The position numbers were made by a program, and so were the translations under genes. 48,993 bases of DNA from Victivallis vadensis (GTDB taxonomy: Bacteria > Verrucomicrobiota > Lentisphaeria > Victivallales > GWF2-50-93), in contig DYRX01000001.1 in the NCBI GenBank assembly GCA_020718525.1, positions 1 through 48,993 of the forward strand, given 5' to 3'. Below the pieces are notes generated by a model. That model was not told the origin of the DNA. It ran no database searches and was given only the letters and a program-made list of their open reading frames with translations. Each line of letters starts with the position of its first letter. The stretch's first letter is position 1. Positions 5,130 to 24,869 of this stretch are shown here, one piece after another.

Positions 5130-6622
5130 GGCTCTGTTCCAGCTCCTGGAAGAGTCTTCTCATGAACCTGGGACTCCTGGATCTTCGCGTTTGCAGATTT
5201 GCCAGCAGGCATGAATGGAGTCATGGCGCTCAGCATGAGCCAGGCGCCAATCAGCGCAATCAGCGACGAGAGGAAGCCAAGCTTGAGCCAGTAGAAAAAA
5301 CTTACATGCAGGTGAGACTTGCGCTCAAGCATACCAAGGGCGACTATGTTCGCGGTGCTTCCAATCATGGTTATGTTTCCACCAAAGCACGCGCCAAAAA
5401 GCAGAGCCCACCACAAAGGAAAGACATTGACAGACTTCGAGAGCTCCTCGATGACCGGACAGAACGCCGCGACAAAGATCACGTTGTCAACAAACGCCGA
5501 GCCAAGAGCCGAAATTGACAGAATCATCGGGACCAGAGTGTTCAAATCATGTCCGCAGACCTTCGAAAAACCATGCGCCATGACTCTGGTGACGCCAGTA
5601 TGCTCCAGCGTTCCTGCGACGGCAAAAAGGAGCATGAAGAAAAGAAGCGTCCACCAGTCAACCTCGTGCTCGACATAATGCCTTGCCCTGTCTCTTTTTA
5701 TGATCATGATGACTCCCGCGCAGACAAGCGGGGCGATAAGAAGGATGCTGTTGGTGTCCAGCCCCAGACGGCTTTCGATCTGATGGTGCGAGGCGATGAA
5801 TGCGATAGTGAGAAGAAGCAGTGCAAGCCCCTGGCGGTAAGGGACCTGGACTTTTGGAGCAAGCCCGAGATCACGGGAGAGCCTGTCCTTGAGCCTGCGG
5901 TCGAATTCGTCGAGATCCTTTCTGAAGTAGAAAAAGCAGAAAAGCTCCGTTAGAAAAAGGCAGACCAGCATGCATGGAAACGCCCAGATCATGAAATCCT
6001 CGAAGGTCAAATGCGCCTTTGTCCCTATGTAGATGCCGACCGGATTGCCCATCATGGTGCCGGCGCTTCCAACGTTTGTTGCCAAGACCGCCATGATGAC
6101 ATAGGGGGCTGGGCTGAGCTTGAGCCTGTCGCAGACCTGGAAGATGAGAGTAGAAACAAATATGATCGAGGTGACTTCATCAACCGCACAGGCGAGAAGC
6201 GCAGAAGCGGTCGCAGTCGCCGCCATGAAGCGCCTCGCGCTTATATTGGGCATTGACACTATGAGCTGGACGACCCAGGTGAAGAAACCAAGATCCCGCA
6301 GTGCGCCAACGATGATCATCATCCCGACAAGAAAGAGTATCACCTCGAGCGCGGCGGACTGGACAAATGACGGGATGCTGAGCGAATGCGAGCAGATCAG
6401 CACGGCAAGCCCGATGAAGGCGATGGCAAGACGGAAGTTCCAGAAAAAAAGCGTGCCCAGAATAATTCCGACAAAGACGCCGGAAGCCACTGACTGAAGC
6501 GGGTCAAAGACGTAGATGCGCCCCAGAATTCCGACGGAGAGGCTGAGGAGGAGAAGGATGCCGAGCCTCTTGATCAGCGACGAGATTCCTATGTCAGAAC
6601 TGCTTTCCGCCGTTTCACTCAT
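5126..6622 (-). CDS. ArsB/NhaD (SLC13/CitMHS-like) anion/ion permease
   Basis: 498 aa and polytopic. Repeated GxxxTxIGSxANIV-type segments (GGNITMIGSTANIVALG, SAGTMMGNPVGIYIG) are typical of this permease superfamily. Confidence 0.7.
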   Translation of the reverse strand: MSETAESSSDIGISSLIKRLGILLLLSLSVGILGRIYVFDPLQSVASGVFVGIILGTLFFWNFRLAIAFIGLAVLICSHSLSIPSFVQSAALEVILFLVGMMIIVGALRDLGFFTWVVQLIVSMPNISARRFMAATATASALLACAVDEVTSIIFVSTLIFQVCDRLKLSPAPYVIMAVLATNVGSAGTMMGNPVGIYIGTKAHLTFEDFMIWAFPCMLVCLFLTELFCFFYFRKDLDEFDRRLKDRLSRDLGLAPKVQVPYRQGLALLLLTIAFIASHHQIESRLGLDTNSILLIAPLVCAGVIMIIKRDRARHYVEHEVDWWTLLFFMLLFAVAGTLEHTGVTRVMAHGFSKVCGHDLNTLVPMILSISALGSAFVDNVIFVAAFCPVIEELSKSVNVFPLWWALLFGACFGGNITMIGSTANIVALGMLERKSHLHVSFFYWLKLGFLSSLIALIGAWLMLSAMTPFMPAGKSANAKIQESQVHEKTLPGAGTEP

Positions 6623-6629
6623 CAGCGTT

Positions 6630-7565
6630 TCACTCCCAGAATATTTGCGAGAAGAAGGAGGACAATTCTATGGTGCCTGCGAATTTCCCACTTTTGAGTA
6701 CGATGATCTGGCGGATTTTCTGCATAAGAAAAATCTTCGCCACCTGAATGGCGGGCAAATCGCCTTCGACTGCCACGTAGTCGTCTCTCATGATGTCTGC
6801 AAGCTTTGTCTCAGAGTCTTTTTTCAGAAGCTCTGCAAATGGCTGGAAGCGCAGTATGGGGGAGAGATCCTCCATCCAAAGAAGGTGCTCGGGCAGGCTA
6901 GCCTTGAGGATGTCCTCGATGGAGATCTGGCCCCTGACATCTCCATCGGAATCTACGATTGGAATGTCCATCGTCTTCCGCGTCGCAAAAGTCTCTATCA
7001 AAGTCTTAAGGCTGTCCCCCTCCTCGAGAACCGGATTTTTTTTCGACGCGAGATCCATCGCCGTGATGTAGTCGGGGACCGCCTCGCTGTACTTGGAAAG
7101 CAGAGCAAGCAGTTCGGAGGGAGACTTCGCTTCAGAGATCCGTTGAAGATCTGAATCGTTCTTGAACTCCTTCGCCAGCGCCGATATGACCTTGAGATGC
7201 GCCGCCGGATCCTGCTTCGGGCTTATCACAAGAACCACAATATTGACTGGTGGCATGCTGGACGCATTGAAATCAATGCCCCTCGGAGAAGTGCCCAACG
7301 CGACGGAAACCGTTTTCAAACCGTCGAATCTCGCATGGGGAACCGCCAGTCCTTTTGCAATGACCGTCGGCATAAGATCTTCGCGGGTCATTACTGCGGC
7401 GGCAATTTCTTCAGGGCTTATTCCAGGGACAGTTCTGGAAAGAGACGTCGCAAGTTCGAGCACCGCGCCACGGCTTGTCGCCGACGAGAGTCCGCATACA
7501 ATGTTCGCCTCGGCAATGTAGTCAATGAAATGAAGCTCGGGCGCCTTGCTTTTCTGCATTTGCAT
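6630..7565 (-). CDS. PTS EIIA(Ntr/Fru)-type domain fused to a CBS-domain pair (regulatory protein)
   Basis: The N-terminal 150 aa carry the EIIA-2 phospho-His region (KGLAVPHARF). The C-terminal half has two CBS-like repeats (IPIVDSDGDVRGQISIEDIL; IIVLKSGKFAGTIELSSF). The gene lies 7 nt upstream of the permease. Confidence 0.7.
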   Translation of the reverse strand: MQMQKSKAPELHFIDYIAEANIVCGLSSATSRGAVLELATSLSRTVPGISPEEIAAAVMTREDLMPTVIAKGLAVPHARFDGLKTVSVALGTSPRGIDFNASSMPPVNIVVLVISPKQDPAAHLKVISALAKEFKNDSDLQRISEAKSPSELLALLSKYSEAVPDYITAMDLASKKNPVLEEGDSLKTLIETFATRKTMDIPIVDSDGDVRGQISIEDILKASLPEHLLWMEDLSPILRFQPFAELLKKDSETKLADIMRDDYVAVEGDLPAIQVAKIFLMQKIRQIIVLKSGKFAGTIELSSFFSQIFWE

Positions 7566-7631: not shown

Positions 7632-9860
7632 TCACTTGAAACGGAAACGTGCCAAGCCTGAAGAATTGTCTAAAATTATATATCCTGTCCCAATCTGCTT
7701 CGAATTCATTTTTGGCAGTAAAACCCGGAGAAAGCTGTAGCCAGGGCTTTTTCCATCTGCGGCTGGATCGTCGGCATGTATCAGCATACAGCTCTTTCCT
7801 TCTCTCCGTTTCGCGTCCTGAAAAATCATGCTTGAAGAAAGATCCGTTTTGCATCTGAGATAGCCTGGCGAAGCGGCGGCTCCATTCTTCAGATATTCGA
7901 CGTAGATTTTAGGAGGGACTGCGCCGAAATATTTGCCAGCGACAAGAAGCGTGTTTCCAGATGCATCTTTAGGATCCGGCGCGGCGGACTCGATGGTGGG
8001 TGACGCAAAAACAAAGTAGGAATCAAGAAAATGGCGGGCACCGTCGTATTCGACTGAAAATCGGTCGAATATTCTGTCCGGGATCGGAGTCTCCAATAGA
8101 GTGCTGAGCAGTTTTTTCCTGCTGTAGAGCTTTTTGTCATAGAGCAGGACATTTCTTGTCCACATCACGCTTATCGATCCGGGAGGGGGATCGGTATCGA
8201 AGCCGTCGCGCAAAACTGCCGCAGGGATCGTCTTTCCCGCGAGTATGCCAAAAAGTTTCGGGGGTGCCTCGAAGACGTTCTCTCCAATCTCAGAAGCATC
8301 AACTTTGAAGAGCGAGCCCGCCGCAATGTAGGTGTAAACTGCGAAATTCGCAGTCTTCTCGAATGCTCCGCAGTCGCTGCGCGGACCAATGAGCCTGTCA
8401 GCACCAGCGTAGTCCTTTTCGCCTGGGGAAGCAATAAAGGCAGGATCTCCGCCGTCAACTGCCGGAGACGAGTCATGAACCCGCAGGTCGTCAGGAGAGG
8501 ACAGGAAAAATGGATCGGCAAAAACGGACGCGGCATCTTCTCCGCTTCCCGACACGTAGGACTGGAAGCCTTCGTACTCCTTGTTGTTCCACACGAAGAT
8601 GGCCTTCGCTTCGTCAGCGCCGCCGCAGTAGTATGTGTTGTTGTCGAATTGATTGTCATGTGAGTATGCCTTCGCAAACCAGTTGCTGATCAGGATGTTC
8701 TGCGTATTCGCGCAAACTATGTTGTTTTGAATCCTATTGGAATGCGCGACCTGGATCATGATTTCGCCTGTTCCGCTCCTTGAGCTGTCATTTTCAAAAA
8801 GCGTGTTGTGCATGAAGGAGCAGTTGATTGTCACCCCTCTTTTCGTGTCGTAGCCGCCAAAGCCGATCCCTGTCACCTTGTTCCTGAAAAAAAGATTGCT
8901 CCTGACAATAATTCCGCTGGTCGTTCTGCCAGGATTTTCACAGCCGACCTCGACCCCGAAATCACATAGGGAAACGCTGTTCCTCTCGATGGTGATGTCC
9001 TTCCCTCCGTCAACATAGATCCCTGCGGCCGCCGCCTCGCCCCCATATGCCGGATTGCCTGACGAGCTGATTCCGAAGACAGTGTTTTCGGAGACCATGC
9101 CGTTCCTCGCCTGGTCGTTGGATTCCGCAGTCCCTTCCCAGCCGATCAGATCAATTCCTATGTTGTCGTTATCCCTGACAGTGTTTTGGCTGACGACGAA
9201 ATTCTCCACGTTGCCGTTGAGCACCATTGACTCGGACCATCCGAGCTTGCAGTCGCTCACAATGTTCCCGCGAATCTCAATTCCGTCTATGGAATTTGCC
9301 GAGTCCGTTCCATATACGGCTATTCCGTGCGCGTTGCCTCCATCCTTTCCTACAGATTTCTGTTCGATGTGATGGACATTGTTGGAGATTATTTTCACGC
9401 CGGAGGACGCGCCGGAGACAAGAATACCGATCGGGACGCTGTCCTGATCCGAGGCGGAAAGGTCTTTCAGCTCGAGCCCCGAGACGGATATATGGCTGAC
9501 ATTTTCAATCTTTATAAGAGGAAACCAGCCATCAAGAGGCTCCAATTTGGATCCGTCAATGATAGGAGCTTCGCCTGGATAGGCTTGGACAGAAATGGGA
9601 GAGCCGTGGGCTCCTGACTTTGTAAATTGCACGCTTTCATAATAAGTCCCGCTCCGGAGATGCAGTGTGTCGCCGGGCAGAAGCTTTTCCACGCTCTGCT
9701 GGAGGCTTTTCCAAGGGGCGTTCTCCGCCCCGGACGCAGAGTCGTCGCCAGCCGGCGAAACATAATAGTCGGAAGCATTCAAATCAGCAGGAAGGCAGAG
9801 CGCGGCGAAGGCGCAAATGCCAAAGAGGGCGAGATCCGTGTTTTTTTTCATGCACATCAT
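7632..9860 (-). CDS. secreted right-handed parallel beta-helix (pectate-lyase-fold, DUF1565-like) protein with unknown C-terminal domain
   Basis: Signal peptide (LALFGICAFAALCLPADLNA), then YYVSPAGDDSASG..PWKSLQQ, typical of DUF1565/beta-helix proteins. Repeated NN/GN-rich turns follow (ISNNVHH, RGNIVSD, SQNTVRDN, IERNSVS, IQNNIV). About 250 C-terminal residues are unassigned. Confidence 0.7.
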   Translation of the reverse strand: MMCMKKNTDLALFGICAFAALCLPADLNASDYYVSPAGDDSASGAENAPWKSLQQSVEKLLPGDTLHLRSGTYYESVQFTKSGAHGSPISVQAYPGEAPIIDGSKLEPLDGWFPLIKIENVSHISVSGLELKDLSASDQDSVPIGILVSGASSGVKIISNNVHHIEQKSVGKDGGNAHGIAVYGTDSANSIDGIEIRGNIVSDCKLGWSESMVLNGNVENFVVSQNTVRDNDNIGIDLIGWEGTAESNDQARNGMVSENTVFGISSSGNPAYGGEAAAAGIYVDGGKDITIERNSVSLCDFGVEVGCENPGRTTSGIIVRSNLFFRNKVTGIGFGGYDTKRGVTINCSFMHNTLFENDSSRSGTGEIMIQVAHSNRIQNNIVCANTQNILISNWFAKAYSHDNQFDNNTYYCGGADEAKAIFVWNNKEYEGFQSYVSGSGEDAASVFADPFFLSSPDDLRVHDSSPAVDGGDPAFIASPGEKDYAGADRLIGPRSDCGAFEKTANFAVYTYIAAGSLFKVDASEIGENVFEAPPKLFGILAGKTIPAAVLRDGFDTDPPPGSISVMWTRNVLLYDKKLYSRKKLLSTLLETPIPDRIFDRFSVEYDGARHFLDSYFVFASPTIESAAPDPKDASGNTLLVAGKYFGAVPPKIYVEYLKNGAAASPGYLRCKTDLSSSMIFQDAKRREGKSCMLIHADDPAADGKSPGYSFLRVLLPKMNSKQIGTGYIILDNSSGLARFRFK

Positions 9861-9967: not shown

Positions 9968-10978
9968 TCAGAGCTCCTTGAAGATGGCGTTCATTTCCGA
10001 CGCGGCTTCCATGTATGTCTGGAAGCGCTCTTCCGGATTTCTAGCCACCATTCTGTCAATGAGGAGAGTAATTTTTTTATCCACGGTCTTGGGCATGATG
10101 CCTGCGACGCTTGCGACGCGGAGGCTTGCGACATGCTTTTTAGCTAGATTATATGCGTCGGTCGAGCTGTAGTACGGCTTTCCTGAGAGGAGATGGAAAA
10201 GCAGCATTCCGAGGCTGTATATTTCGCTGTTCATTGATTCCGGGAGTCCGACTATCCTTTCTGGCGGCATGTAAATGGGGGATCCTTCGACAGTGTCCGA
10301 AGGGGTGGGCTTGAACGCGGCATCTATGGAGAGACAGAGTCCGTAGTCGAAAAGCTTGGCGTTGCCCTTCGTGTCAATGATGACATTTTGAGGCTTGAGA
10401 TCGCGGAATAAATACCCTGATTCGTAGATTCTCTGTTCGGCGGAGAGAAGCTGAAGCCCCCAAAGCATTGCGTATTTCTGCTGGACACCGCTTTTTTCCT
10501 CGATGATCTGGTCAAGCCTTTTTCCTTCGACAAACTCCATTGCGCAGTAGAATTCGTCATTGTATTGCCCATAGTCGAAGACGGAAATGAGATGCGGATG
10601 TCTGCCGAAGCTTTTTCCGATGGCGGCCTCGTTCAATAGCGCATGTATGAGATGCTGGTCCCGCTTTGCGGTTCTTGCCAGGACTTTGACGGCGAAAAGA
10701 AGACTCGCGTTGGATTCCAGGAACGCTTTGTAGACACTGCCCATTCCGCCGCCGCCAAGAGGCTTGAAAAGCCAGAAGTTTTTGATTTTCATAGGGATAA
10801 AGATGGGGTTCGAGCAGGCGGGGCATTTCTCGATGGTCAGTGGCTGAAGAGGCTCTATCGGAATTCTGCTTCCGCAGTTTTCGCATTCGACGCAGTTGTC
10901 TGCAAGCGCGACGGGGTCAAGACCTGTCTCGCGACGCTCTTCTGCCTCTTTTTCCCTTTTTTTAAATAACCCAAGCAT
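9968..10978 (-). CDS. Ser/Thr protein kinase with N-terminal zinc-ribbon
   Basis: CVECENC...CPAC zinc-ribbon. Kinase motifs are the G-loop GGGGMGSVYKA, AVKVL lysine, catalytic loop FRDLKPQN, DYG and PIYMPPE. Confidence 0.8.
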   Translation of the reverse strand: MLGLFKKREKEAEERRETGLDPVALADNCVECENCGSRIPIEPLQPLTIEKCPACSNPIFIPMKIKNFWLFKPLGGGGMGSVYKAFLESNASLLFAVKVLARTAKRDQHLIHALLNEAAIGKSFGRHPHLISVFDYGQYNDEFYCAMEFVEGKRLDQIIEEKSGVQQKYAMLWGLQLLSAEQRIYESGYLFRDLKPQNVIIDTKGNAKLFDYGLCLSIDAAFKPTPSDTVEGSPIYMPPERIVGLPESMNSEIYSLGMLLFHLLSGKPYYSSTDAYNLAKKHVASLRVASVAGIMPKTVDKKITLLIDRMVARNPEERFQTYMEAASEMNAIFKEL

Positions 10979-10981
10979 TTC

Positions 10982-12616
10982 TCAGGGTTCCTCCGCTTTG
11001 ATCATTGCCGCCTCTTCCTTTTCAATTTCCGCCGCCTCTTTGCTGGCGTTTCCTAGCGCGCTTATCTCCATTTCCAGGCTTTTAGACATTTCTGGCGGAA
11101 AATTCTCCACGCAGGCCTTCGCCATCTGACTGCGTATCATGGCGAAGCCCGGCATGCCGGTGCGCTTCCAGCTGTCGCCCCGGTCTTTTTTGTAGATTCT
11201 ATATATCTTCGCCGCCAGATTCATGTGCGCGAGCGCGGCGTCCTTCTCGCCGTAGGCAAGAAAGTAGAGGGATCTGTAGATCATTGAGCTGACGAGGCCC
11301 GTGGCCTGCCTTGGCGTCGAGGAGGCTACATCCTCCTTCCACTGCTTTTCTACGAAGACGTCAATAGGCTCCAGGAGGGATGCGTCTTCCGGGAATTCCT
11401 CCCTCATTTCTTCCAGGAGCTTTTCGGACTTTCCGTAGCTTCCGAAGCTATAGAGCAGAACGATCGCGTCAATCATGAAATTTTTCATTGCCGCATTTCT
11501 GAAGGACTGGGACTTGTGCATCGCGAAGGCTTCGCGGAAGGTCTTTATGACGGAATCTGTGAGCTTGAGGTTGGGGACGGTCATTATGCCCATGTAGTCG
11601 TTCTTGTCGAGCATCAGCAGTCTTCCTCCGATGAACGCGTCCTTCAGGGACTGGGTTATCATGCGGTCGTTGCTGATTTCGCGCTCGTTCAGCTTGGATT
11701 TTTCAAGCCCCAGGGTTGCCCAATAGATCGCGTGCGCCTCTGGAAGCCTCCAGTCGAACGCCCCGTATCTCTGGTTGATTTCGTGCATTTTTACGGCATC
11801 GAGCTTGTAGACTTCCTTGAGCCATTTTTTTCTCATAAACCATTCCAGATCAGAGGCTTGCACTTTGTCCTTCATCTTTTCAGAAACTGCGGAAGGCATT
11901 TTCCCCTCTTTTCTGAACTCCTTTTCCAGGACTGCGAAATTCGCAAATCCGGCGGCGGAGATCGCCGTCCAGAGAGGGCTGTCTGCGGGATATTGCAGTT
12001 CGAAAAGCTCGATACTGTCGGGAGCCGCGAGAATTTTCTCCCAGTCGGGCTCGTTTCCGCCGAAGACCTTCATGTAGTCTATCGCCATCTGCTGTTTGTA
12101 GTAGAGGTTGGCGTCGTCCATTATGTTTCCGATCTTGTGCTGGTAGATCCAGCCGAGCTCCTTGTAGAGGACAGGATCGGAGGGGTTGTAGACTATCGCC
12201 TCGTCCCGTATGAGCTCGAGTCCTTTCTTCACCCATCTCCATCGGTCTTCGGGCGCGCTGAAGACGACAGAGATGTTGTATGCCATGTTCCAGGCGAGAT
12301 ATGCCGTCGCGCCAGTGAATCTGGGCTGGAGCTTTGTTAGCCAGGATGCGAGCTGGACCATTTCAAAATACTGCCCCTTCTCCTGGAGCATCGCCGCCCT
12401 CAGCCATAGGACGTCGGCGACAAGTCCTCTGAAACTGCCAAGCGCTACGGTCGTGAAGGCGACTATCGGCGGCGCATTTTTCACGATGTCGGTGTCGGTC
12501 AGAGAATTGTCCTTCTTGATCTGGTTGAGCTTTCCCTGGACTAGATTTATAGACGCGACGAAGAGGCAGAAAGCTGCAAAGATTCCGAGCGCCTTCAGTA
12601 TTCTCATGCTTCTCAT
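10982..12616 (-). CDS. membrane-anchored, mostly alpha-helical protein of unknown function (544 aa)
   Basis: Long ORF with an N-terminal TM/signal anchor (ILKALGIFAAFCLFVASINLV). ATGA overlap with the upstream permease; 3-nt gap to the kinase. I recognise no family motif. Confidence 0.6.
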   Translation of the reverse strand: MRSMRILKALGIFAAFCLFVASINLVQGKLNQIKKDNSLTDTDIVKNAPPIVAFTTVALGSFRGLVADVLWLRAAMLQEKGQYFEMVQLASWLTKLQPRFTGATAYLAWNMAYNISVVFSAPEDRWRWVKKGLELIRDEAIVYNPSDPVLYKELGWIYQHKIGNIMDDANLYYKQQMAIDYMKVFGGNEPDWEKILAAPDSIELFELQYPADSPLWTAISAAGFANFAVLEKEFRKEGKMPSAVSEKMKDKVQASDLEWFMRKKWLKEVYKLDAVKMHEINQRYGAFDWRLPEAHAIYWATLGLEKSKLNEREISNDRMITQSLKDAFIGGRLLMLDKNDYMGIMTVPNLKLTDSVIKTFREAFAMHKSQSFRNAAMKNFMIDAIVLLYSFGSYGKSEKLLEEMREEFPEDASLLEPIDVFVEKQWKEDVASSTPRQATGLVSSMIYRSLYFLAYGEKDAALAHMNLAAKIYRIYKKDRGDSWKRTGMPGFAMIRSQMAKACVENFPPEMSKSLEMEISALGNASKEAAEIEKEEAAMIKAEEP

Positions 12617-14103
12617 TTTCGGATCACGGCTCCCAGTTCGCGTTTCGAGTACAGCCAGACGAAAAAGACAAATAGGGGAAGCCCCCTGAGGATGAAATAC
12701 TTGAAGAAGGCGACGGCAATCGCGGAATTCTCGATGAGTTCCCCGTCGGAAAGCTTGTCTGAGACGTCGAGGCGCTGGACAGGAACGGCGACCGTCACGA
12801 TGAAGCGGCTGACTTTTTTCCCGACGTAGTCGTGCACCGCCTCGAGGCTTGAGAGATCCAGCTTCTCCTCCATGCCATCGTTGTACATTTCGTCAATCGA
12901 GATCATGTAGTCGGAGAAGACGCCGAAGAGGATGTAGGCGACGCAGATGAAGACGGCGCATGGCATTGAGAATACGCCGCCAAGCGAGCAGGCGAGGGCG
13001 CCCACGAAGAGGAGCTTTATCGAAAGCATTAGTATCGCGCGCAGGAAATTTCCCAGGAAGCTGTCTTTTCTGACTAGCAGTTTTGGTCCGTCTGAGAGCT
13101 GGAAATAGACGGGCTTCTGCCCGAGGTCGTAGTTCGCATACGCTATTGCGACTTTTCCGTCGTCGCCGATGACTTGCGGAGGAATTGGGAACTCGTTGAA
13201 GGCGCCGCCGGCGAAGCGCTCGGGCTCAGGCATGTAAGGAATGAAAACGTATTCGGGTTTTGAGTCGGCAAGATCCGGAGCTTCCTTGCGCATGTCTTCC
13301 ATCATTTTCTCGTTTGTCTTGATCCTGAAAAACCATATTCCGTAGGTTTCTCTCTGTTCTTTCTGTGAAATCTGATCAACGTATGGTCTGAATCTCAGGA
13401 AAACAGGGCGGTCGAGGACTTTCGACACATTTTCATATTCCCAGATTCTTGAGGCGCTGGGACCGAATCTTACTTCGCCAAGCTTTGCCAGAGTCTGCTT
13501 TCTTAGCTGTGCGTCTATGAAAGGCTGAGACTTCATCGGATCGGTAGGATTTGAGGACGGATTGAGGCCGAGCTCCTTCAGCTCTGCGAGGCGCCTTTCA
13601 TACTCCCTTTTGATTTCCGCCTCGACATCTGGCAATTCCGGCATATAGACCCTGCGGCCGACAAATATTTCATGTCTGATCCGTTCCTTGTCCTCCGGAG
13701 AGAATGCTGTGCTGTTGAATTCGTAAAGTATTCTCGCATATGCAATTACACCGCATACCACCAGTAAAAAAAAATGGAGCAGGAAGACTCCAAGGAATTT
13801 CCCGATCCAGATGGAGGTCCTCGAGAGCGGCTTTGTCGAGAGCATGTGCATCTGGTAGTTTTCAATGTCAGAGGAGCAGACAAAGCAGGAGACCCACACA
13901 GTGGAGATTGTAAGAATCATGGTGAGCGCAGTGATGCAGTACTGGATTGAGAGCCTTATGTGTCCGATCGGTGTCCCGTCGTCAAGCACAGTGCCTGGAA
14001 GAACAAGTACGGCGAGCGCCAGCATGAGGAAAAGCATTAGGAAAATCTTTGATCTGAGTGCCATTCTGACAGTGAGCTTGCCTACTGCGAAAAGCGGCAT
14101 CAT
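12613..14103 (-). CDS. ABC-2-like membrane permease with a large (about 230 aa) extracytoplasmic insert
   Basis: 496 aa with about three N-terminal and three C-terminal TM helices flanking a soluble insert. ATGA overlaps with the ABC ATPase upstream and the 544-aa gene downstream. The N-terminus (FAVGKLTVRMALRSKIFLMLFL) is typical of ABC-2 permeases. Confidence 0.6.
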   Translation of the reverse strand: MMPLFAVGKLTVRMALRSKIFLMLFLMLALAVLVLPGTVLDDGTPIGHIRLSIQYCITALTMILTISTVWVSCFVCSSDIENYQMHMLSTKPLSRTSIWIGKFLGVFLLHFFLLVVCGVIAYARILYEFNSTAFSPEDKERIRHEIFVGRRVYMPELPDVEAEIKREYERRLAELKELGLNPSSNPTDPMKSQPFIDAQLRKQTLAKLGEVRFGPSASRIWEYENVSKVLDRPVFLRFRPYVDQISQKEQRETYGIWFFRIKTNEKMMEDMRKEAPDLADSKPEYVFIPYMPEPERFAGGAFNEFPIPPQVIGDDGKVAIAYANYDLGQKPVYFQLSDGPKLLVRKDSFLGNFLRAILMLSIKLLFVGALACSLGGVFSMPCAVFICVAYILFGVFSDYMISIDEMYNDGMEEKLDLSSLEAVHDYVGKKVSRFIVTVAVPVQRLDVSDKLSDGELIENSAIAVAFFKYFILRGLPLFVFFVWLYSKRELGAVIRK

Positions 14104-15266
14104 CGCTTGTCCTCGTTCAATAACTGCGAAATTCGCGAATTTGCGGCGGAGAGATCTTCGGACTCCGGAGATGGAGCCGGAGCATCTTCGCCAAGCCTCT
14201 TGCTGTCGGTTATCTCGCGGATTTTTTTGTCAGCCATCTCTTTTTCGAGAGATTCGGACTTGTCTTTCGCGTCCGTATCTTCGCCTGGAGGCGGTAGTTT
14301 TGAGCTGAGCGCCTCGATAAGCATGTTTCCATCTTTTTTGAGATATTCGGCAATTTCTCCACCGCCCTCCGCGCCATAGGTGCCGGTTTTTTCTTCGCGC
14401 GCCTTTCTGACGACTTCCAGAAAATATTCCTCGAGAGTGCGTCTCGGGTGGTCCACGCTGACAGGGATGCCACCCATGGACTGTGAGATTTCACCGACGA
14501 TTCTGTCTCTGAGGCCGGGTTCGAGCAGTGGTGTCACAATTCTGCTCATTTCCGAGACTGTGAGCAGTTCATCGAGGGTTCCGGACCCTCTTATCTTCCC
14601 TCCGTAAAGTATTATGACTCTGTCGCAGAGATCCTGGACGTCAGCGAGCAGATGACTGCTGATTACGACAGTTTTCCCGCGCGACTTGAGAAATTTGATC
14701 AGATCTTTTATTTCTCTGCATCCGATGGGATCGAGACCGGAAGTGGGTTCGTCGAGGATGAGGAGTTCCGGATCGTTTATCATCGCCTGGGCGAGACCGA
14801 TTCTTCTTGACATGCCTTTTGAAAATTCCCCGAGCCTTCTGTTTCTTGCGTGTGCGAGTCCCACCATGTCTAGGAGCTGTTCTGCGCGCTTCTTCCGTTC
14901 TGCGTGCGGCAGTCCGAATACGGATCCAAAAAAGTCCAGCGTCTCGAAGGCGGTGAGATAGCGGTAGAGATATGACTCTTCAGGCAGATAGCCGATGGCG
15001 GCCTTGGTCTTGACATCGCGCGGAGACTTGCCAAATATGCTCACGGAGCCTCTTGTCGGATAAAGAAGGCCGAGCAGGATCTTGAGAGTTGTTGATTTTC
15101 CCGAGCCGTTGGGACCAAGGAGTCCGAAGACTTCGCCCTCATTTACTTCGAAGTCAATTTCGTTGACGGCCTTGGCTTTCGGCCGGTGCCAGAAGTCGCG
15201 GAACTCCTTGACAAGAGCGACAGCCTTCACAACTGTTTTCTGCGCATCAGCCTTCTTGTCGCTCAT
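14100..15266 (-). CDS. ABC transporter ATP-binding protein with acidic C-terminal extension
   Basis: Walker A GPNGSGKST, signature-like FSKGMSRR, Walker B LLILDEPTSGLD and H-loop ISSHLL. A low-complexity tail of about 130 aa follows. Confidence 0.9.
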   Translation of the reverse strand: MSDKKADAQKTVVKAVALVKEFRDFWHRPKAKAVNEIDFEVNEGEVFGLLGPNGSGKSTTLKILLGLLYPTRGSVSIFGKSPRDVKTKAAIGYLPEESYLYRYLTAFETLDFFGSVFGLPHAERKKRAEQLLDMVGLAHARNRRLGEFSKGMSRRIGLAQAMINDPELLILDEPTSGLDPIGCREIKDLIKFLKSRGKTVVISSHLLADVQDLCDRVIILYGGKIRGSGTLDELLTVSEMSRIVTPLLEPGLRDRIVGEISQSMGGIPVSVDHPRRTLEEYFLEVVRKAREEKTGTYGAEGGGEIAEYLKKDGNMLIEALSSKLPPPGEDTDAKDKSESLEKEMADKKIREITDSKRLGEDAPAPSPESEDLSAANSRISQLLNEDKR

Positions 15267-15868
15267 TTTGAATCTGCGCTCCTTTTAAGTGTTCCGTCGC
15301 GCTTGTAGTATTTTGTTCCTGGCAAGAGTTTTCCGGCGGAATATGTTTTTTCAAACATGGTGGCTTCATTGTCATAGAATTCGATGAAGGCGCCATCAAG
15401 CTCTCCAGCATCGTTGAAGGAGTAGGAGAATTTCTTTTTGCCGTTCTCGTGCCATTCGGTGAACTGTCCGGTCTTTTTTCCGTCCTTAAGAGCTCCCTCG
15501 AGAGCCTTCTGCCCTTTCTTGAACCAGGAGGACAAGGGACCATCGAGTTTTCCGTCCTTGTAGTTGCACTCGACGAGCTTGGAGCCGTCCTTGTAGAACT
15601 CGCGGTATTGTCCGTGTTTGATTTCGGGCTTGAGCCTATAGACAGTGTATTCGGCTTTCAGCTCTTTTCCAGGCTCCGGATAAAAATCCTGTCTTTGTAT
15701 GAATTCGGGGAGGCTTTCCTCCTGTTTTTTTTCGACTTTCGGGCTTTGCGCCTGAAGAATGGGAGGAGGCTTCGGCTTTCCGCTGAAAAGCAGAAAATAA
15801 AGGGCGAGAGCGAGCACAATCAGGAAGACTGCGATTCCAATTATGATCTTTTTATTATTGTCGTCCAT
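15263..15868 (-). CDS. membrane-anchored MORN-variant repeat protein (YwqK-like)
   Basis: N-terminal TM (IIIGIAVFLIVLALALYFLLF). Repeated YKDGKLDGP / KDGKKTGQFTEWHENGKKK / GELDGAFIEFY units follow. Confidence 0.7.
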   Translation of the reverse strand: MDDNNKKIIIGIAVFLIVLALALYFLLFSGKPKPPPILQAQSPKVEKKQEESLPEFIQRQDFYPEPGKELKAEYTVYRLKPEIKHGQYREFYKDGSKLVECNYKDGKLDGPLSSWFKKGQKALEGALKDGKKTGQFTEWHENGKKKFSYSFNDAGELDGAFIEFYDNEATMFEKTYSAGKLLPGTKYYKRDGTLKRSADSK

Positions 15869-15871
15869 TTT

Positions 15872-17461
15872 TCATTCCCCGATATTTAGCTTTTGCCAAC
15901 GGGCTTCGGAAGATGCACCCTTGAGAGTGAGCTTGTATGGAGAACCGAGCGGATTTGCCATTTTCGCCCTGTTTGGATACGATACAGCGCCCGAGCTGTC
16001 TCTTGACGCCGAATTCCACTTTTTCATCAGATCCGTGGATTTTCCGTCAGGAAAAAAGCATGACTGCGGGATGACGGATCTTGACACCGAGGGGCTGGCC
16101 CATTCGAGTTTGCAGAGGGTGAAATGCAGAACCTCGGCAAGGGCGACTTTGATGTCATATTTCTCTCCAGCCTTAAGCTTGACATTGGTCTTTTCGTATT
16201 CTGTTGGCGGCTGTTCCTTCCACCCGTCAATTATAAGATTGCCATTTAGCCAGAGGCGGATGCCGTCGTCGCCTTTGAGATAGAATGTGTATGTATCGGT
16301 CTTTTGAGGAACAAGAGTGCCTGTCCAAATGACTGTCATCAGATTTTCGGGTGTGTTCTCGTGGGGTTTTTCGGTTCGCCAGTCGAAATCAATCTGCGGA
16401 TCAACTCTTGTGAAAGTTGCGCCTTTGGCGGTCATTGTGCTGAAATAGGATGCGTAGAGGCCGCCAAGCCAGTCTCCGCTGTTGCCGGTGTCGCTGTCAT
16501 TGAAATAGGGATGGAACGCCCTGGCCTTTATTGTTGACGCTTTTTCGAGCTTGATCGGAGCGCTGTAGAGCTCGGAGTTTTCATTTGGCTCAGATCCGTC
16601 GCAGGAAAAGCGTATCTCGGAGTCTTCAGTCGCACAGGAGACTGTGATTTCCATTCCGGGCTCGAATTTGACGCCGTCGGGTTCGAAGCTTGGCGTGGCG
16701 CATTTTGGTCTTAAGAATCGCTCGTTGATGCGGTCAAGTCGTTTTTTCTCGGCGGCGGCGATCTTCGCCAGTTCAGCTTCGAGCTCTTTCTTCTGCCATA
16801 TTTGTCCGTTGTGCACAGCCAGATCCTGCCGTGATCGTATGGATTTTTCAAGGAGTCCATTCATTGCATCCTGTCCTTCGGCCTGGAGGGGGAGGGCGGC
16901 GGAATATGTTTTCCTGATTTCTTCGAGGCATGTTTTTTTCAGTTCGGGGTCGCCTATTTTCTGCACCCAGAATGAAATGAGCTTTTCATTGATCGCCGGA
17001 TATTTTGTGTGAATTTCTTCTTTGAGCTCCTTCATGAAACGAAGCTTCTCGTCGTTGTACTTGTTCTTTTCTATTCTTATAATCTGCTTCCTGCGCTCCT
17101 CGTTTTTTTTCGGATCGAGATGGTCGAAGAACGCCGGATCAACGTCAACGACCGGCACGCCTGTCGTCCCGACTCTTATTGTGCGCGAGTCGTGTCCGAG
17201 AAGTTTGCCTTTCGCTATTTTTCCTCTGTAAACTACGGATATCTCCTGTCCTTTTTCGTAGAGGGGACATTCGGTTTCGGATTTTTTCTTCGCTGCATCC
17301 TCGTCAAACGGAGGGTACGTGTCGAGTTTTTGCCTGTAGACGGCTTCTCCCTCGGGAGCGAGGTCGGAGAGCTTCTGTCCAATCAGCCCAAGGGGGAGCG
17401 AAATGGCGGCGAGCGCAAGAACGAGGCGGATTCGTGAAGAGCGTAGGAAAAAAGAACCCAT
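15872..17461 (-). CDS. secreted PA14-domain protein with Fn3-associated (chitobiase C-terminal-like) module
   Basis: Signal peptide present. EITVSCATEDSEIRFSCDGSEPNENSELYSAPIKL is the Fn3-associated motif. PA14 signature: GLYASYF..DFDW..VIWTGTLVPQKTDTYTFYLKGDDGIRLWLNGNLIIDGW. An AGGAGG SD sits in the 11-nt gap upstream. Confidence 0.75.
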   Translation of the reverse strand: MGSFFLRSSRIRLVLALAAISLPLGLIGQKLSDLAPEGEAVYRQKLDTYPPFDEDAAKKKSETECPLYEKGQEISVVYRGKIAKGKLLGHDSRTIRVGTTGVPVVDVDPAFFDHLDPKKNEERRKQIIRIEKNKYNDEKLRFMKELKEEIHTKYPAINEKLISFWVQKIGDPELKKTCLEEIRKTYSAALPLQAEGQDAMNGLLEKSIRSRQDLAVHNGQIWQKKELEAELAKIAAAEKKRLDRINERFLRPKCATPSFEPDGVKFEPGMEITVSCATEDSEIRFSCDGSEPNENSELYSAPIKLEKASTIKARAFHPYFNDSDTGNSGDWLGGLYASYFSTMTAKGATFTRVDPQIDFDWRTEKPHENTPENLMTVIWTGTLVPQKTDTYTFYLKGDDGIRLWLNGNLIIDGWKEQPPTEYEKTNVKLKAGEKYDIKVALAEVLHFTLCKLEWASPSVSRSVIPQSCFFPDGKSTDLMKKWNSASRDSSGAVSYPNRAKMANPLGSPYKLTLKGASSEARWQKLNIGE

Positions 17462-17472
17462 TGTCCCTCCTG

Positions 17473-19404
17473 CTATGCGTTTTCGTTGAAGGTGAGTTCC
17501 TCGCCGGTGCGGACAAGTCTTGCGCTGTTGAAAATGATTATGATGGTGCTTGCCGTGTGGAGAATTGCGGCGGCGATCGGCGGCATCCAGCCGAATACGG
17601 AAAGGCTTATTCCGCCTATGATGAACAGGAAGCCCAGAAAAATGTTCTGGGCGATGATTGCGCTTGACTTGCGCGCAAGAACAATCAGCATGGGGACTCT
17701 ACGCAAGTCGTTTGTCATCAATGCTATAGAGGCGCTGTCAATGGCAATGTCGCTTCCTATCGCACCCATTGCAATTCCAAGGTCGCCCGCTGTAAGCGCA
17801 GGGGCGTCGTTCACTCCATCGCCCACCACTGCGACATGTGAGATTTTCTTCATTTCCTTTACGTACCTGACCTTGTCGTCTGGGAGACACTGGGATCTGA
17901 AGTCACCGATGCCGAGGCTTCTCGCCACGATTTCCGCGACTGAATTTCTGTCTCCAGTGACCATGGAGCAGTTTTTGACGCCTATGTCGAAGAGTCCGCG
18001 TATTGCGTCGTGAGCCTCTTTGCGGACCGTGTCCTTAAAACCGATCCAGCCGATGTTTCGTCCGCCTTTGGAGACATGCACAACGCTCATGACGACATCC
18101 TCGACATCTGTTCCGGGACCTGAGATTGGCGAAGACGATTCGTGAAATTTTTCAACCCACTCCTTTCGACCGATTCTGCAGAGTTCGCCTTTGTAGTCTG
18201 CGCTGACGCCTTTTCCGTGTTCTTCTGCGAAATCGGCGACATCGTCAATTTTGAGACCAGCCTCGGCGGCAAGCTGCTGAAGGGCCTTTGCGGTCGGGTG
18301 ATTGCTGTGCTGTTCGACTGAAGCCGCGATTTTCAGCAGTTCGGCGGGCTGGATGCCTTCGGCTGGTTCAAGTCTGGCGACGGAAAGCTTACCCTCAGTC
18401 AAAGTTCCGGTCTTGTCGAATATCACGGTTCTGATTTTTGCCGCCATTTCGAGATATGAGACGTCTTTTATGAGAATTCCTAGTCTGGCGGCGGCGGCGA
18501 GAGACGCGACGATTGCCGAAGGAGATGCCAGAACAAGCGCACAGGGGCAGGATATGACCAGAATGGCGATCACATTCTCCATTTTTCCCATGAAAAGCCA
18601 GGTGAGTCCGGCGATCATGAGAATCGTCGGCGTATAGAATCCGGCGTATTTGTCTATAAGGCGAATGATGGGGGGGCGACTGCTCTCGGCCGCGAGAATC
18701 AGATCCTGGATTTTGCCAAGTGTCGTGTCGCGTCCAGCCTTGGTGACCTCGATCTCAATGGCGCCTGTCATGTTTTGAGTGCCTGCAAAGACGTCATTTC
18801 CGCATTCCTTTTCTACAGGGAGAGATTCGCCCGTGATTGATGCCTGATTGACTGTGCTGTTGCCTTTTCTGACGACACCGTCAACGGGAAAATTTTCTCC
18901 GGGGCGGATTCGTATGAGATCGCCGACTTTGAGGCTTGCGACATCCGTTTCTATCTCCTGCCCGTCCTCGACTTTTCTTGCGACATGCGGCATGAGCCTG
19001 ATAATTTTCTCGATTGATTTCTGTGCGCCGCTGGCAGTTTTAGTCTCGATGATCACCGAGAGGAGGAGGAAGAAGGAGATGATTCCGGCAGTTCTGAAGT
19101 CGCCTCCTGCCATTGCGGCAAGAACGGCAAGGGAAACCAGCTCGTTCATGTGGATGAGGCCTTTTGCCAGGTCGAAGACTGCAACTTTGAAAAGGGGGAA
19201 CGCCATTATTAGCGCCCCTGCCATGGCGCTGAGATCGGCGGCAAGCGTCTGATCCGGCTGGAGCCAGTTCAGCAAATAGGAGTTGACAATGAAAAACGCT
19301 CCTACGAGAGCGGTACCAAGACGCCCCAGGCTTCTCGGATGCCCGGGATCTTCGGAATCATGGTCGTGCGAATGGCCGCAAAGGCAGACTTTCTTGTCTG
19401 ACAT
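17473..19404 (-). CDS. heavy-metal translocating P1B-type ATPase (Zn/Cd/Co-type), no HMA domain, His-rich N-terminus
   Basis: Motifs: TGES, CPC (ISCPCALVLASP), DKTGTLT and GDGVNDAPAL. The N-terminus reads CLCGHSHDHDSEDPGHP. Confidence 0.9.
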   Translation of the reverse strand: MSDKKVCLCGHSHDHDSEDPGHPRSLGRLGTALVGAFFIVNSYLLNWLQPDQTLAADLSAMAGALIMAFPLFKVAVFDLAKGLIHMNELVSLAVLAAMAGGDFRTAGIISFFLLLSVIIETKTASGAQKSIEKIIRLMPHVARKVEDGQEIETDVASLKVGDLIRIRPGENFPVDGVVRKGNSTVNQASITGESLPVEKECGNDVFAGTQNMTGAIEIEVTKAGRDTTLGKIQDLILAAESSRPPIIRLIDKYAGFYTPTILMIAGLTWLFMGKMENVIAILVISCPCALVLASPSAIVASLAAAARLGILIKDVSYLEMAAKIRTVIFDKTGTLTEGKLSVARLEPAEGIQPAELLKIAASVEQHSNHPTAKALQQLAAEAGLKIDDVADFAEEHGKGVSADYKGELCRIGRKEWVEKFHESSSPISGPGTDVEDVVMSVVHVSKGGRNIGWIGFKDTVRKEAHDAIRGLFDIGVKNCSMVTGDRNSVAEIVARSLGIGDFRSQCLPDDKVRYVKEMKKISHVAVVGDGVNDAPALTAGDLGIAMGAIGSDIAIDSASIALMTNDLRRVPMLIVLARKSSAIIAQNIFLGFLFIIGGISLSVFGWMPPIAAAILHTASTIIIIFNSARLVRTGEELTFNENA

Positions 19405-20558
19405 CAGTTCTCTCCCGCTTTCTTTTCGGCGCCGTCTTTTTTGTAGTCGGGTTCCGGACTCAGCATTATTCTCAGCTCCTGGGTTTCATTTGAGTGCACA
19501 TCGGGAACGATGTATTTGTCTTTTACATCCCGGAGCAGGGAAACCAAGGTCTCGGAGTAGAGCGGTATGATTACAGACTCGGGATTTTTCCTGTATTCGA
19601 CGAGGATTTTTTCGAAGTACTTGGACTCCGACTCGATTTCGGAGACTGTCCTGCTTCTATAAACTTCGGCATCAACGATTATTTCGCGGCTTTCGGTTTC
19701 CGATTCCTGAGCGGATTTGAAGGAGTAGTTGATAGCCTTCAGCTTTGCGCTGGAGCTCTCCTGCTCGGCGTTGATCACGTCATGGAAGGCGGAAACTGTG
19801 CTGAATGGAGGAGTCTTCGATTTGAGGACGGCGGAACTGAGCTCGACTCCCGCATTTAATGCCTGGAATGCGGAGGCGATTCTGCGGCTCACGTCCTCTT
19901 GGTAGCCTGTCACATCCTTGTAGAGCGTGTTCTCCACTTTTTGAACCGCTGTCGCCTTGATGATTTCATTCTCGACAATAGAAGCCAGGGTCGTCCGCGG
20001 TCCGCGCGTTCCTGCAGATCTTCCGTCGTCCCTCAAGACAGGCTCGTCCTCGGAGCGTGGATCCTGGGGGCAGAACAGCTTGCTGTAGTATGCGAGAGGA
20101 TCTTTCACTTCATAGACTATTTCCCATTCGGTGTGGACGATGTTTGCATCGCCAGTGAGAAGCGAGCCGTCACGTCCGGGCATGATGGGCACCGCCATTT
20201 TGCTGAGGGCATCCTGCTCGTCGGTCATTGAGACATCTGGATTGGGCCAGAAATTTTTTATCTGCATGACCTGCCTGCTGGTTGGGATTCTTACAATTCT
20301 GCTGACGGGATACGGGAAAGCCCAGTGCCAGTCTTCGGTGAAGACTTCGCTTATTTTTCCGAATCTGAGAAGGATCACAGCCTCCTGCGGGTCGACAGTG
20401 AAATATCCGAGGAAGGTGAAATACCAGGCGACAGTCCCCATGACGAAGAGCGTGAGCAGGGCGACGACGTATCGAAAGGATCTTGCCAGCGCGTTCAGGC
20501 CGGAGCCGATTCCGCTCTCCCTTTCCAAGGACTCTTTTTCGTTGTTTTCCAAAATCAT
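19404..20558 (-). CDS. SPFH/band-7 protein, HflK-like
   Basis: 384 aa with a single N-terminal TM and an SPFH core (VDPQEAVILLRFGKISEVF..). Its stop TGA (19406-19404) shares one nt with the ATPase ATG. Confidence 0.7.
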   Translation of the reverse strand: MILENNEKESLERESGIGSGLNALARSFRYVVALLTLFVMGTVAWYFTFLGYFTVDPQEAVILLRFGKISEVFTEDWHWAFPYPVSRIVRIPTSRQVMQIKNFWPNPDVSMTDEQDALSKMAVPIMPGRDGSLLTGDANIVHTEWEIVYEVKDPLAYYSKLFCPQDPRSEDEPVLRDDGRSAGTRGPRTTLASIVENEIIKATAVQKVENTLYKDVTGYQEDVSRRIASAFQALNAGVELSSAVLKSKTPPFSTVSAFHDVINAEQESSSAKLKAINYSFKSAQESETESREIIVDAEVYRSRTVSEIESESKYFEKILVEYRKNPESVIIPLYSETLVSLLRDVKDKYIVPDVHSNETQELRIMLSPEPDYKKDGAEKKAGEN

Positions 20559-20592
20559 TTTCTCTCTTTCCGCTGTGACGGAGGAATTTTAG

Positions 20593-21570
20593 CTACTTTG
20601 ATGTTCCCGGCGCATCGTCATTCTTGAGCGGTGCCTTCAGCCCCATCGCCGGATCGTCCATGTTCAGGAGATCGAATGGCGGATAGCGCGTATTGAGGAT
20701 GAGTGTCGTTTTCTTGGGCATGATTTTGCGCAGTGAGTCGAGTTTTCTGAGGAAGTCCGCGAGAGCCGGATCCTGCTTGAATACAGAGTAGTAGGAGGCG
20801 GCCTTTGCATCGCCCTCGGCTCGTATGCGCTTTGCCTCAGCTTCCGCGTCGGCAATCTTGAGTTTCTTCTTGTTGTCCGCCTCGTTTATGATCTGCTTGG
20901 AGATGTTTTCGCCCTGCGAACGGTAGTGCTGAGCGACTATAGCCCTCTCCTCCTTCATCCTTTCAAAAACTTTTTCGGAAGTTTTTTCAGGCACTGCAAC
21001 TTGTTTGAATCCTATCTCTTCGACCGCGATGCCGTAGTCCTTCAGCGCGCTGTCCTTCACTCCGGCAAGAATTTCCTTCTCTATCTCGGAGATCTTCATC
21101 TTCTTCGGATCCGTGTTGATGAATTCGTCGAACTTGTACTTGCCAACAATCGCGTTTCTGACGCTTCTGACAAGGGAATTGAGCCTGTCTTCGGCGGAAA
21201 TAAATGTGCCGACATTTTTATAGAGAACGTCCGGTCTTTCGATTTTGTAGAGGCAATATGTGCTGATAATGAGATTTTTGGCATCCGCCGTGTAGGTTTC
21301 TTCGATTTTTCCGCTAGAGCCGGCAAAACAGCGCAGGCGATTGTCGAATTTTATGACCTTCTGTATCGGATAGGGCCATTTGAAATGGAGACCGGCTTCC
21401 TTTATTCCGCTTATTTTACCGAAAGTGGTCAGAACTGCGGTTTCAGTTGAATCCACCTGATAGCAGAATATCGCCGCCAAAAAAATCGTCAGCACCAACA
21501 ATCCCAAAAATAGCGATGGGATATGGCTGACTGCACCAGTTTTTTCAATTTCATGCTTGTGTTCGCTCAT
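20593..21570 (-). CDS. SPFH/band-7 protein, HflC-like
   Basis: 325 aa with an N-terminal TM, an SPFH core (VDSTETAVLTTFGKISGIKEAGLHFKWPYPIQKV) and a coiled-coil tail (ADAEAEAKRIRAEGDAKAA). Confidence 0.8.
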   Translation of the reverse strand: MSEHKHEIEKTGAVSHIPSLFLGLLVLTIFLAAIFCYQVDSTETAVLTTFGKISGIKEAGLHFKWPYPIQKVIKFDNRLRCFAGSSGKIEETYTADAKNLIISTYCLYKIERPDVLYKNVGTFISAEDRLNSLVRSVRNAIVGKYKFDEFINTDPKKMKISEIEKEILAGVKDSALKDYGIAVEEIGFKQVAVPEKTSEKVFERMKEERAIVAQHYRSQGENISKQIINEADNKKKLKIADAEAEAKRIRAEGDAKAASYYSVFKQDPALADFLRKLDSLRKIMPKKTTLILNTRYPPFDLLNMDDPAMGLKAPLKNDDAPGTSK

Positions 21571-21585
21571 ATTTTCGACTCCGTT

Positions 21586-24672: not shown

Positions 24673-24869
24673 TAGATGTCCTCCTTTTTTTGTAGAACTT
24701 GAGATTGCCAAACGAGTTATATTGAGACGGGATGTCAAGTGTTGAACTTTATCTCACACGAAGACAATAAGCGCCTGAAGCAAAGAAAAGCCTTGCCGGT
24801 TTGATACTCGCCCATTGTGGTGCATATAATACATGAAATAATCCAATTAAACACTGACAGACGGACAAA

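Follow-up and report, generated by a model that had tools for sequence, protein, structure and literature searches.

A conserved ABC-2 (type V) system with a membrane-anchored TPR-like partner in Lentisphaeria and its linkage to SPFH proteins and a P1B-type ATPase

In NosDFY(L), an ATP-binding cassette (ABC) system of the ABC-2 type is coupled to a dedicated extracytoplasmic partner, the beta-helix protein NosD, and its permease NosY (~270 amino acids, aa) has no periplasmic insert. The GldA/GldF/GldG system of Bacteroidota combines an ABC-2 ATPase with a permease of the same clan, whose gene is followed by that of a large membrane-anchored periplasmic auxiliary; gldA is not always adjacent to gldF/gldG. 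LptB2FG, which belongs to the type VI fold class, has a six-transmembrane (TM) permease with a beta-rich periplasmic domain between TM3 and TM4 and directs its energy to an extracytoplasmic hand-off. Here, a locus from Victivallis vadensis (GCA_020718525.1, contig DYRX01000001.1) is compared with these systems. It was analysed within a window of 48,993 nucleotides (nt), the whole stretch of DNA under study, to whose positions all coordinates refer; the genes of the block all lie on the minus strand. Its core is a three-gene ABC-2 (type V) system, consisting of an ATPase, a NosY-like permease and a membrane-anchored TPR-like protein of 544 aa (U544), that is found throughout Lentisphaeria. In most species these genes form the 3' half of a closely spaced seven-gene array, which also encodes three SPFH proteins (B7a, B7b and B7c) and a P1B-type ATPase.

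The conservation of this locus was followed in 89 related loci, comprising 80 GTDB species loci, two complete-genome loci, the nearest relatives (L086 and L088) and one distant lineage. All window proteins were placed on the related loci by tblastn, and the denominators given here count the loci with sequence room for the feature in question. The permease gene lies directly upstream of the U544 gene in 87 of 89 loci, with overlapping junctions in 73%, and this pair is the invariant part of the conserved unit. The ABC ATPase gene adjoins the permease gene in 56/78 loci, and the comparison shows that ATPase, permease and TM-anchored solenoid protein are an evolutionarily inseparable group. The P1B-type ATPase gene is found upstream of the ABC genes in 54/69 loci, B7b and B7c occur together in 48/59 and B7a is present in 43/59. 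The full order B7a-B7b-B7c-P-type-ABC-permease-U544 was seen in about 50 GTDB species loci as well as in two complete genomes, and a distant lineage (permease 26% and U544 30% identical) keeps it with gaps of 2–45 nt. Median junctions along the array are 36, 15.5, 1.5, 22, 6 and -4 nt (39–78 species), the gap of 1.5 nt between B7c and the P-type gene being the median of 48 species. To date, literature searches have returned no description of an SPFH/P-type/ABC cluster in Lentisphaerae.

The ATPase (14100–15266, 388 aa) is of the ABC-2/DrrA type; its ABC_tran domain (118 bits in Pfam; 214 bits for the DrrA subfamily in NCBIfam) is followed by a small C-terminal domain and an acidic tail of ~100 aa. 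The H-loop is intact, as are Walker A (GPNGSGKST) and Walker B with the following Glu (ILDEPTSGLD), and the signature reads SKGMS instead of SGGQ. Judged by these motifs, the protein has a catalytically complete nucleotide-binding domain (NBD) of the DrrA/ABCA/NosF group. In a PDB sequence search the nearest solved NBDs were those of ABCA4/ABCA1 (1e-65), followed by NosF (3e-48), and the nearest NCBIfam models are DrrA and GldA. A preliminary description of this region had noticed an acidic tail of about 130 aa, and a D/E-rich stretch of ~100–140 residues does follow the NBD in the window protein. Relatives keep the tail as a feature (median 100 aa, 22% D/E), and on its own it matches no Pfam family.

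The permease (12613–14103, 496 aa) gave only sub-threshold matches to ABC2_membrane_3/4 in Pfam; its homologues carry PF12679 (ABC2_membrane_2, the NosY/GldF family), and JGI gives some of them the name 'multi-copper enzyme maturation permease'. Hydropathy predicts six TM segments and, between TM3 and TM4, a soluble stretch of 218 aa (residues 131–348), close to the periplasmic insert of about 230 aa proposed before; the insert alone matches no Pfam family. A word-indexed search yielded 6 homologues and a profile search 23, and because the word-indexed search found few relatives, the AlphaFold2 (AF2) model was built on 11 sequences only. This model, like that of U544, is a monomer. At a mean predicted local distance difference test (pLDDT) score of 71.7 it displays an N-terminal interfacial helix, six TM helices with additional helices in the TM5-TM6 interval, and an insert of mixed helical/beta structure. 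Its top Foldseek matches are the NosY chains of NosDFY (7o0y and 7znq; probability 1.0, E ~1e-2, ~140 columns), and NosY is also the sole PDB sequence match of the permease, at E = 0.1. The permease is in the same clan as NosY and is not its orthologue. Type V transporters carry a coupling helix in the TM2-TM3 loop. In the homologue alignment, D79, Q84, K91, P92 and R95 of this loop are invariant, and since the invariant loop occupies the coupling-helix position, the TM3-TM4 insert should lie on the opposite, periplasmic side. The modelled layout is that of a type V permease, with a short TM1-TM2 loop, a predicted cytoplasmic TM2-TM3 coupling loop and putative extracytoplasmic helices between TM5 and TM6.

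Compared with the systems named at the outset, the locus shares parts with each. In both fold and sequence the TM part of the permease comes nearest to NosY, the ATPase resembles NosF, and both systems couple an ABC-2 transporter to a dedicated extracytoplasmic partner. Nevertheless, the partner is a TM-anchored alpha-solenoid here, the permease carries a 218-aa insert that NosY lacks, and no invariant metal ligands are present. Neither NosD nor NosL nor NosZ is encoded in the conserved array. As to GldA/GldF/GldG, the permease gene is likewise followed by that of a large membrane-anchored auxiliary, and the ATPase gene is likewise not always adjacent. However, the locus belongs to another taxon, has no gld or type IX secretion system genes nearby, and stays well below the equivalog cut-offs for GldA (TIGR03522, 204.4 vs 402.6 bits) and GldF (TIGR03518, 18.2 bits over residues 21–116 only vs 288.5). 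No GldG/ABC_transp_aux match was obtained in Pfam with U544 and 33 homologues, which gave faint TPR matches only, and a GldG/GldF relationship with the same gene order was looked for and not found. LptB2FG resembles the locus in the position of its beta-rich domain and differs from it in fold class; the permease has no match to LptF_LptG (PF03739), the ATPase scores 154.9 bits against the LptB cut-off of 240 (TIGR04406), and the top 50 Foldseek matches of the permease include no LptF/LptG chain. The system is therefore placed outside GldAFG, NosDFYL and LptB2FG and inside the ABC-2/type V superfamily. The preliminary description had been unable to map the locus to Gld, Nos or Lpt systems and had called it an envelope module without a described counterpart; for the ATPase/permease/U544 core both statements stand. 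Elsewhere in the window, 107 nt downstream of the kinase gene treated below, lies a gene for a 742-aa secreted right-handed beta-helix protein (7632–9860, minus strand), which scores 23.7 bits against Pfam NosD, at the threshold. It is Pel9A-like according to precomputed annotation and is not conserved in the related loci except for one short match in L044; it is probably a polysaccharide lyase-like enzyme and not a NosD.

U544 (10982–12616) comprises an N-terminal TM segment, an ultra-conserved membrane-proximal module (~47–175) and a variable TPR-like alpha-solenoid. Its homologues number thousands, all of them 'hypothetical' proteins without a Pfam domain from Lentisphaerota/Victivallales. 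A profile search against 1.84 billion representatives returned 2769 clusters at 50% identity (E <= 1e-3), and GTDB species-representative genomes hold at least 587 matches. U544, 34 homologues and four distant homologues were assigned to no family by Pfam, NCBIfam or PADLOC; TPR_17 and TPR_14 matched U544 below threshold only, and in PDB sequence searches neither the family profile nor the isolated conserved N-terminal module found a match. Hydropathy detects a single N-terminal hydrophobic segment, and the AF2 model (34 sequences, pLDDT 82.7) begins with a long N-terminal TM helix and continues as an all-alpha solenoid, for which Foldseek found generic TPR proteins only, with TM-scores below 0.25. 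These results agree with the initial view of U544 as a membrane-anchored, helical protein without a family. Since 58 of its 81 invariant residues fall near the membrane (residues 39–174), the membrane-proximal module is regarded as the functional core, and the C-terminal solenoid is variable. The motifs 'AYN', 'EMVQ' and 'QHKxGN' had prompted a reading of U544 as a lytic transglycosylase (SLT) or polysaccharide lyase; this was dropped because there is no SLT or lyase match in Pfam, the spacing of these motifs does not fit SLT, and Foldseek matched no alpha/alpha-toroid enzyme.

The orientation of U544 bears on its role. Over 170 homologues, 2.1 K/R precede the TM segment and 3.5 K/R are found in the loop of ~20 residues that follows it, next to which lies a borderline-hydrophobic segment. 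This charge pattern favours an outward-facing solenoid: the solenoid would be periplasmic in a single-span N-in topology and equally in a hairpin that keeps the basic loop inside. Acidic C-terminal peptides are frequent ligands of TPR domains, and the solenoid might instead be cytoplasmic and act as a LapB-style regulator or adaptor, which binds the acidic tail of the ATPase or links to FtsH via HflK/C-like proteins. The conservation of that tail, the co-operonic HflK/C-like genes and the borderline segment (residues 51–72, mean hydropathy 1.48), a possible second TM pass, are in line with such an adaptor. It would nevertheless put the K/R-rich loop in the periplasm, against the positive-inside rule, and AF2 does not build residues 51–79 as a single TM helix. 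In addition, the pairing with the permease persists in loci without an adjacent ATPase, no rubredoxin-type domain of LapB is present, and Cys is absent from the invariant residues. A cytoplasmic adaptor of this kind is considered improbable.

The reading preferred here, with a probability of roughly 0.55, is that of a type V ABC system working at the periplasmic face through the permease insert and the TPR partner. The ATPase dimer would drive the permease dimer through the conserved cytoplasmic TM2-TM3 loop, and the work would be delivered at the periplasmic face, where the beta-rich insert and the ultra-conserved module of U544 may form a platform. This platform could extract, hold or hand on an envelope component, for example a lipid, lipid-linked or lipoprotein-like molecule, with the TPR solenoid as its periplasmic acceptor or scaffold. 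NosFY driving periplasmic NosD and GldF paired with GldG would be the nearest working analogies; literature searches on NosY/GldF-type mechanotransmission gave nothing relevant.

Wzm/Wzt, TarGH and ABCA proteins are models of type V exporters, and PelB, BcsC, AlgK and PgaA have TPR parts reaching towards the outer membrane. The locus might accordingly encode a classical exporter by which a lipid, glycolipid or polysaccharide crosses the inner membrane, with U544 as a periplasmic scaffold towards the outer membrane. The closeness of the ATPase to the ABCA lipid exporters would suit such a role, as would the weak similarity of the insert to carbohydrate-binding beta-sandwiches and the abundance of W, Y, N, D, H and K among the invariant residues of U544, which may point to a glycan-binding surface. 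However, the conserved neighbours include no gene for a glycosyltransferase, polymerase or outer-membrane porin, the matches to carbohydrate-binding modules (CBM) are weak and lie in a region of low pLDDT, and Wzm-type polymer exporters are not known to have large periplasmic domains. Export of this classical kind is held to be unlikely.

The 5' half of the array extends the tight co-directional block to 9968–23505. B7a (21586–23505, 639 aa), its first gene, encodes an N-terminal domain of ~310 aa with ~7 TM segments by hydropathy, fused to an HflK-like Band_7 domain (5.7e-11); the fusion is found in 43/59 loci, and the N-terminal domain matches no Pfam family, the best match being DUF2157 at E 0.014. 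B7b (20593–21570, 325 aa) and B7c (19404–20558, 384 aa) each have a single N-terminal TM segment. B7b contains Band_7 (6.3e-24) and just reaches the HflC cut-off (TIGR01932, 134.7 vs 134.4), whereas B7a (86.8) and B7c (98.5) are HflK-like and remain below the HflK cut-off (TIGR01933, 159.4). In the window B7a and B7b are separated by 15 nt and B7b and B7c by 34 nt, and B7c overlaps the start of the P-type ATPase gene by 1 nt. HflK and HflC form an SPFH cage around FtsH, and their genes adjoin each other as these do. The array differs in having three SPFH genes, one of them fused to the ~7-TM domain, and in its operon partners, which are a P1B-ATPase and an ABC system and not hflX or ftsH. Just upstream of the SPFH genes are two further genes (23740–24738 and 24870–25637, both minus strand), namely a CDF cation-efflux (zinc transporter) gene, which was found in no related locus, and a caspase-like Peptidase_C14 gene.

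The P-type ATPase (17473–19404, 643 aa) belongs to the P1B heavy-metal ATPases, scoring 548 bits against TIGR01525 (cut-off 346), and contains the phosphorylation site FDKTGT as well as SCPCALVLASP, with CPC in TM4. Its orthologues keep CPCA(V/I/L)VLA(T/S)P in TM4, LH(T/A)xST in TM6 and a His/Cys-rich N-terminus. It is classed as a putative transition-metal exporter of uncertain specificity. With CPC, LH(T/A)xST and ~6 TM segments it fits the textbook Cu or Zn subgroups poorly; the TM6 motif recalls the HEGxT motif of Co-type pumps. In Mycobacterium, the P1B-ATPase CtpC assembles with its scaffold-like partner PacL1 in membrane platforms (PMC9374683). That pair is comparable by analogy only, in that a P1B-ATPase shares both its operon and its membrane foci with a scaffold-like membrane protein; PacL1 is a small DUF1490 protein and not an SPFH protein, its foci are flotillin-independent (PMC9374683), no ABC system is involved and the system is unrelated in sequence. 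As a weaker part of the proposed mechanism, the co-operonic SPFH proteins could serve as an HflK/C-type scaffold that brings the metal pump together with the ABC system in a single membrane domain. Carried to its end, all seven genes might encode one Lentisphaeria-specific envelope super-complex, in which an HflK/C-type SPFH cage, one subunit bearing the 7-TM domain, encloses the P1B pump and the type V ABC machine, a periplasmic beta-sandwich and the TPR solenoid process an envelope component, and the U544 module is a new functional, possibly catalytic, domain. This extended model is speculative and distinctly unlikely as a whole.

Several observations weigh against a periplasmic ABC machine working in concert with the 5' half of the array. 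The insert is modelled at modest confidence (pLDDT 50–80) and matches CBM-like beta-sandwiches weakly (Foldseek E 0.03–0.07). The topology of U544 is deduced from charge bias alone, and its solenoid may be cytoplasmic. Metal handling by the insert or by U544 has no residue-level support: the permease insert has no invariant His, Cys or Met, and among these residues the invariant set of U544 includes only H160. A metal-chaperone role for either was set aside on these grounds. Permease and U544 occur without an adjacent ATPase in 22/78 loci, among them L044, L054, L063, L066, L067, L076 and L083, which are labelled Kiritimatiellota, Verrucomicrobia, Oligosphaeraceae or Lentisphaeraceae. The P-type|ABC junction is interrupted in this window, by genes for a PA14 and a MORN protein, and in L088, where two genes of sugar-metabolism type (GFO_IDH_MocA and AP_endonuc_2) stand on the opposite strand between the P-type and ABC genes (5088–7011 of that locus). 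In L011 (1–21530) the SPFH/P-type block is on the strand opposite to U544 and downstream of it. Because the halves are thus separable, what links the SPFH/P1B genes to the ABC genes may be co-regulation and not a physical complex.

The insertion-tolerant junction, the altered relative orientation of the halves in L011 and the loci in which no ATPase adjoins permease and U544 could even mean that the array is no more than conserved synteny, in which housekeeping genes that are unrelated and share no function (HflK/C, a metal pump and an ABC system) adjoin one another. Yet order and very short junctions last down to 25–30% protein identity. Short junctions at such divergence are unusual for genes that do not work together, and we regard the absence of any shared function as possible though doubtful, keeping the periplasmic type V system as the preferred reading.

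The preliminary description had instead treated six genes at 9968–17461 as one unit, namely those for the PA14 protein, the MORN protein, the ATPase, the permease, U544 and a kinase. The open reading frame listing bears out the six minus-strand genes and their junctions of +3, -4, -4, -4 and +3 nt, and Pfam and NCBIfam uphold the domain calls (PA14/Fn3-associated, MORN, ABC ATPase and kinase). The PA14 protein (15872–17461, 529 aa), whose gene begins 11 nt from the 3' end of the P1B-ATPase gene, is predicted to be secreted or anchored; it consists of a signal or anchor segment, a helical K/E-rich region, Fn3_assoc and CHB_HEX_C (CHB_HEX_C_1) matches and a PA14 domain (89 bits, gathering score 24), and its N-terminal region alone matches no Pfam family. 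The MORN protein (15263–15868, 201 aa) carries MORN_2 repeats (32 bits vs a gathering score of 29.6) and is predicted to be membrane-anchored; hydropathy finds one N-terminal hydrophobic segment in each of the two proteins. The kinase (9968–10978, 336 aa) is a putative cytoplasmic Hanks-type Ser/Thr kinase (Pkinase, 148 bits vs 31.7) with the motifs AVK, FRDLKPQN and DYG, preceded by a zinc-ribbon pattern (C29/C32 and C52/C55).

The six products had been proposed to form one export or surface-display machine regulated by the kinase through phosphorylation. PA14 and MORN proteins are envelope proteins, and the junctions are close enough for translational coupling, so that the six genes are very probably co-transcribed in this genome. 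Nevertheless, PA14 and MORN genes were found by tblastn in 0/89 related loci, including the relatives whose U544 is 60–67% identical: in L086, the closest relative (67%), the ABC gene directly follows the P-type gene, and in L088 (60%) two unrelated genes stand at the PA14/MORN position. In JGI metagenome contigs, the PA14 protein has no full-length relative, only domain-level matches (~35% over ~140 residues), and none of 80 PA14 loci contains MORN, permease or U544. From their absence in the nearest relatives it follows that PA14 and MORN are a lineage-specific insertion at the insertion-tolerant P-type|ABC junction. Kinase matches in related loci number 11, several of them weak, and the kinase gene adjoins U544 only in the closest clade and in both orientations, co-directional in L086 and L088 and convergent in L005, L008, L009, L012 and L065. 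Moreover, the tight array continues upstream beyond 17461, and the conserved partners of the core, the P1B-ATPase and the three SPFH proteins, lie outside the six genes. PA14, MORN and the kinase are thus shown to be local additions outside the conserved machine, and neither the co-occurrence of the six genes in other genomes nor their phospho-regulation as a unit was borne out. A failure to co-occur, seen here for three of the six, is what the preliminary description had itself named as refuting its proposal. A six-gene machine is very improbable.

The kinase also gave a full-length match to the PADLOC models of the PD-T4-6 anti-phage kinase (1e-51), which is read as generic Hanks-kinase similarity because the kinase gene sits in housekeeping synteny. 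A defence-system reading was dropped, since the module belongs to chromosomal housekeeping synteny and only its generic kinase and ATPase domains matched PADLOC models. A second Ser/Thr kinase of 545 aa is encoded in the window at 45211–46848 (minus strand), with a kinase domain 27% identical to that of the 336-aa kinase and an N-terminal region of ~270 aa. Two large open reading frames of the window, at 39404–41986 (minus strand, 860 aa) and 33528–34457 (minus strand, 309 aa), were matched by no Pfam family (E <= 1e-4).

For annotation, the locus teaches that a functional module is not defined by tight junctions in a single genome, two members of the proposed six-gene unit being recent insertions into an older operon. 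U544 represents a large unannotated family that is the obligate partner of a NosY-like permease, and the pair enlarges the ABC-2/type V superfamily, within the NosY/GldF clan, by an accessory family and a permease insert that are both new. A TM-anchored alpha-solenoid combined with a permease insert would be a third partner solution beside NosFY-NosD and GldF-GldG. With its stable co-operonic link to a P1B pump and three SPFH proteins, the system is a concrete example in which to ask what is organised by bacterial SPFH scaffolds, and the super-complex, if true, would represent an SPFH-organised 'effluxosome' or a platform for envelope maintenance of a new kind.

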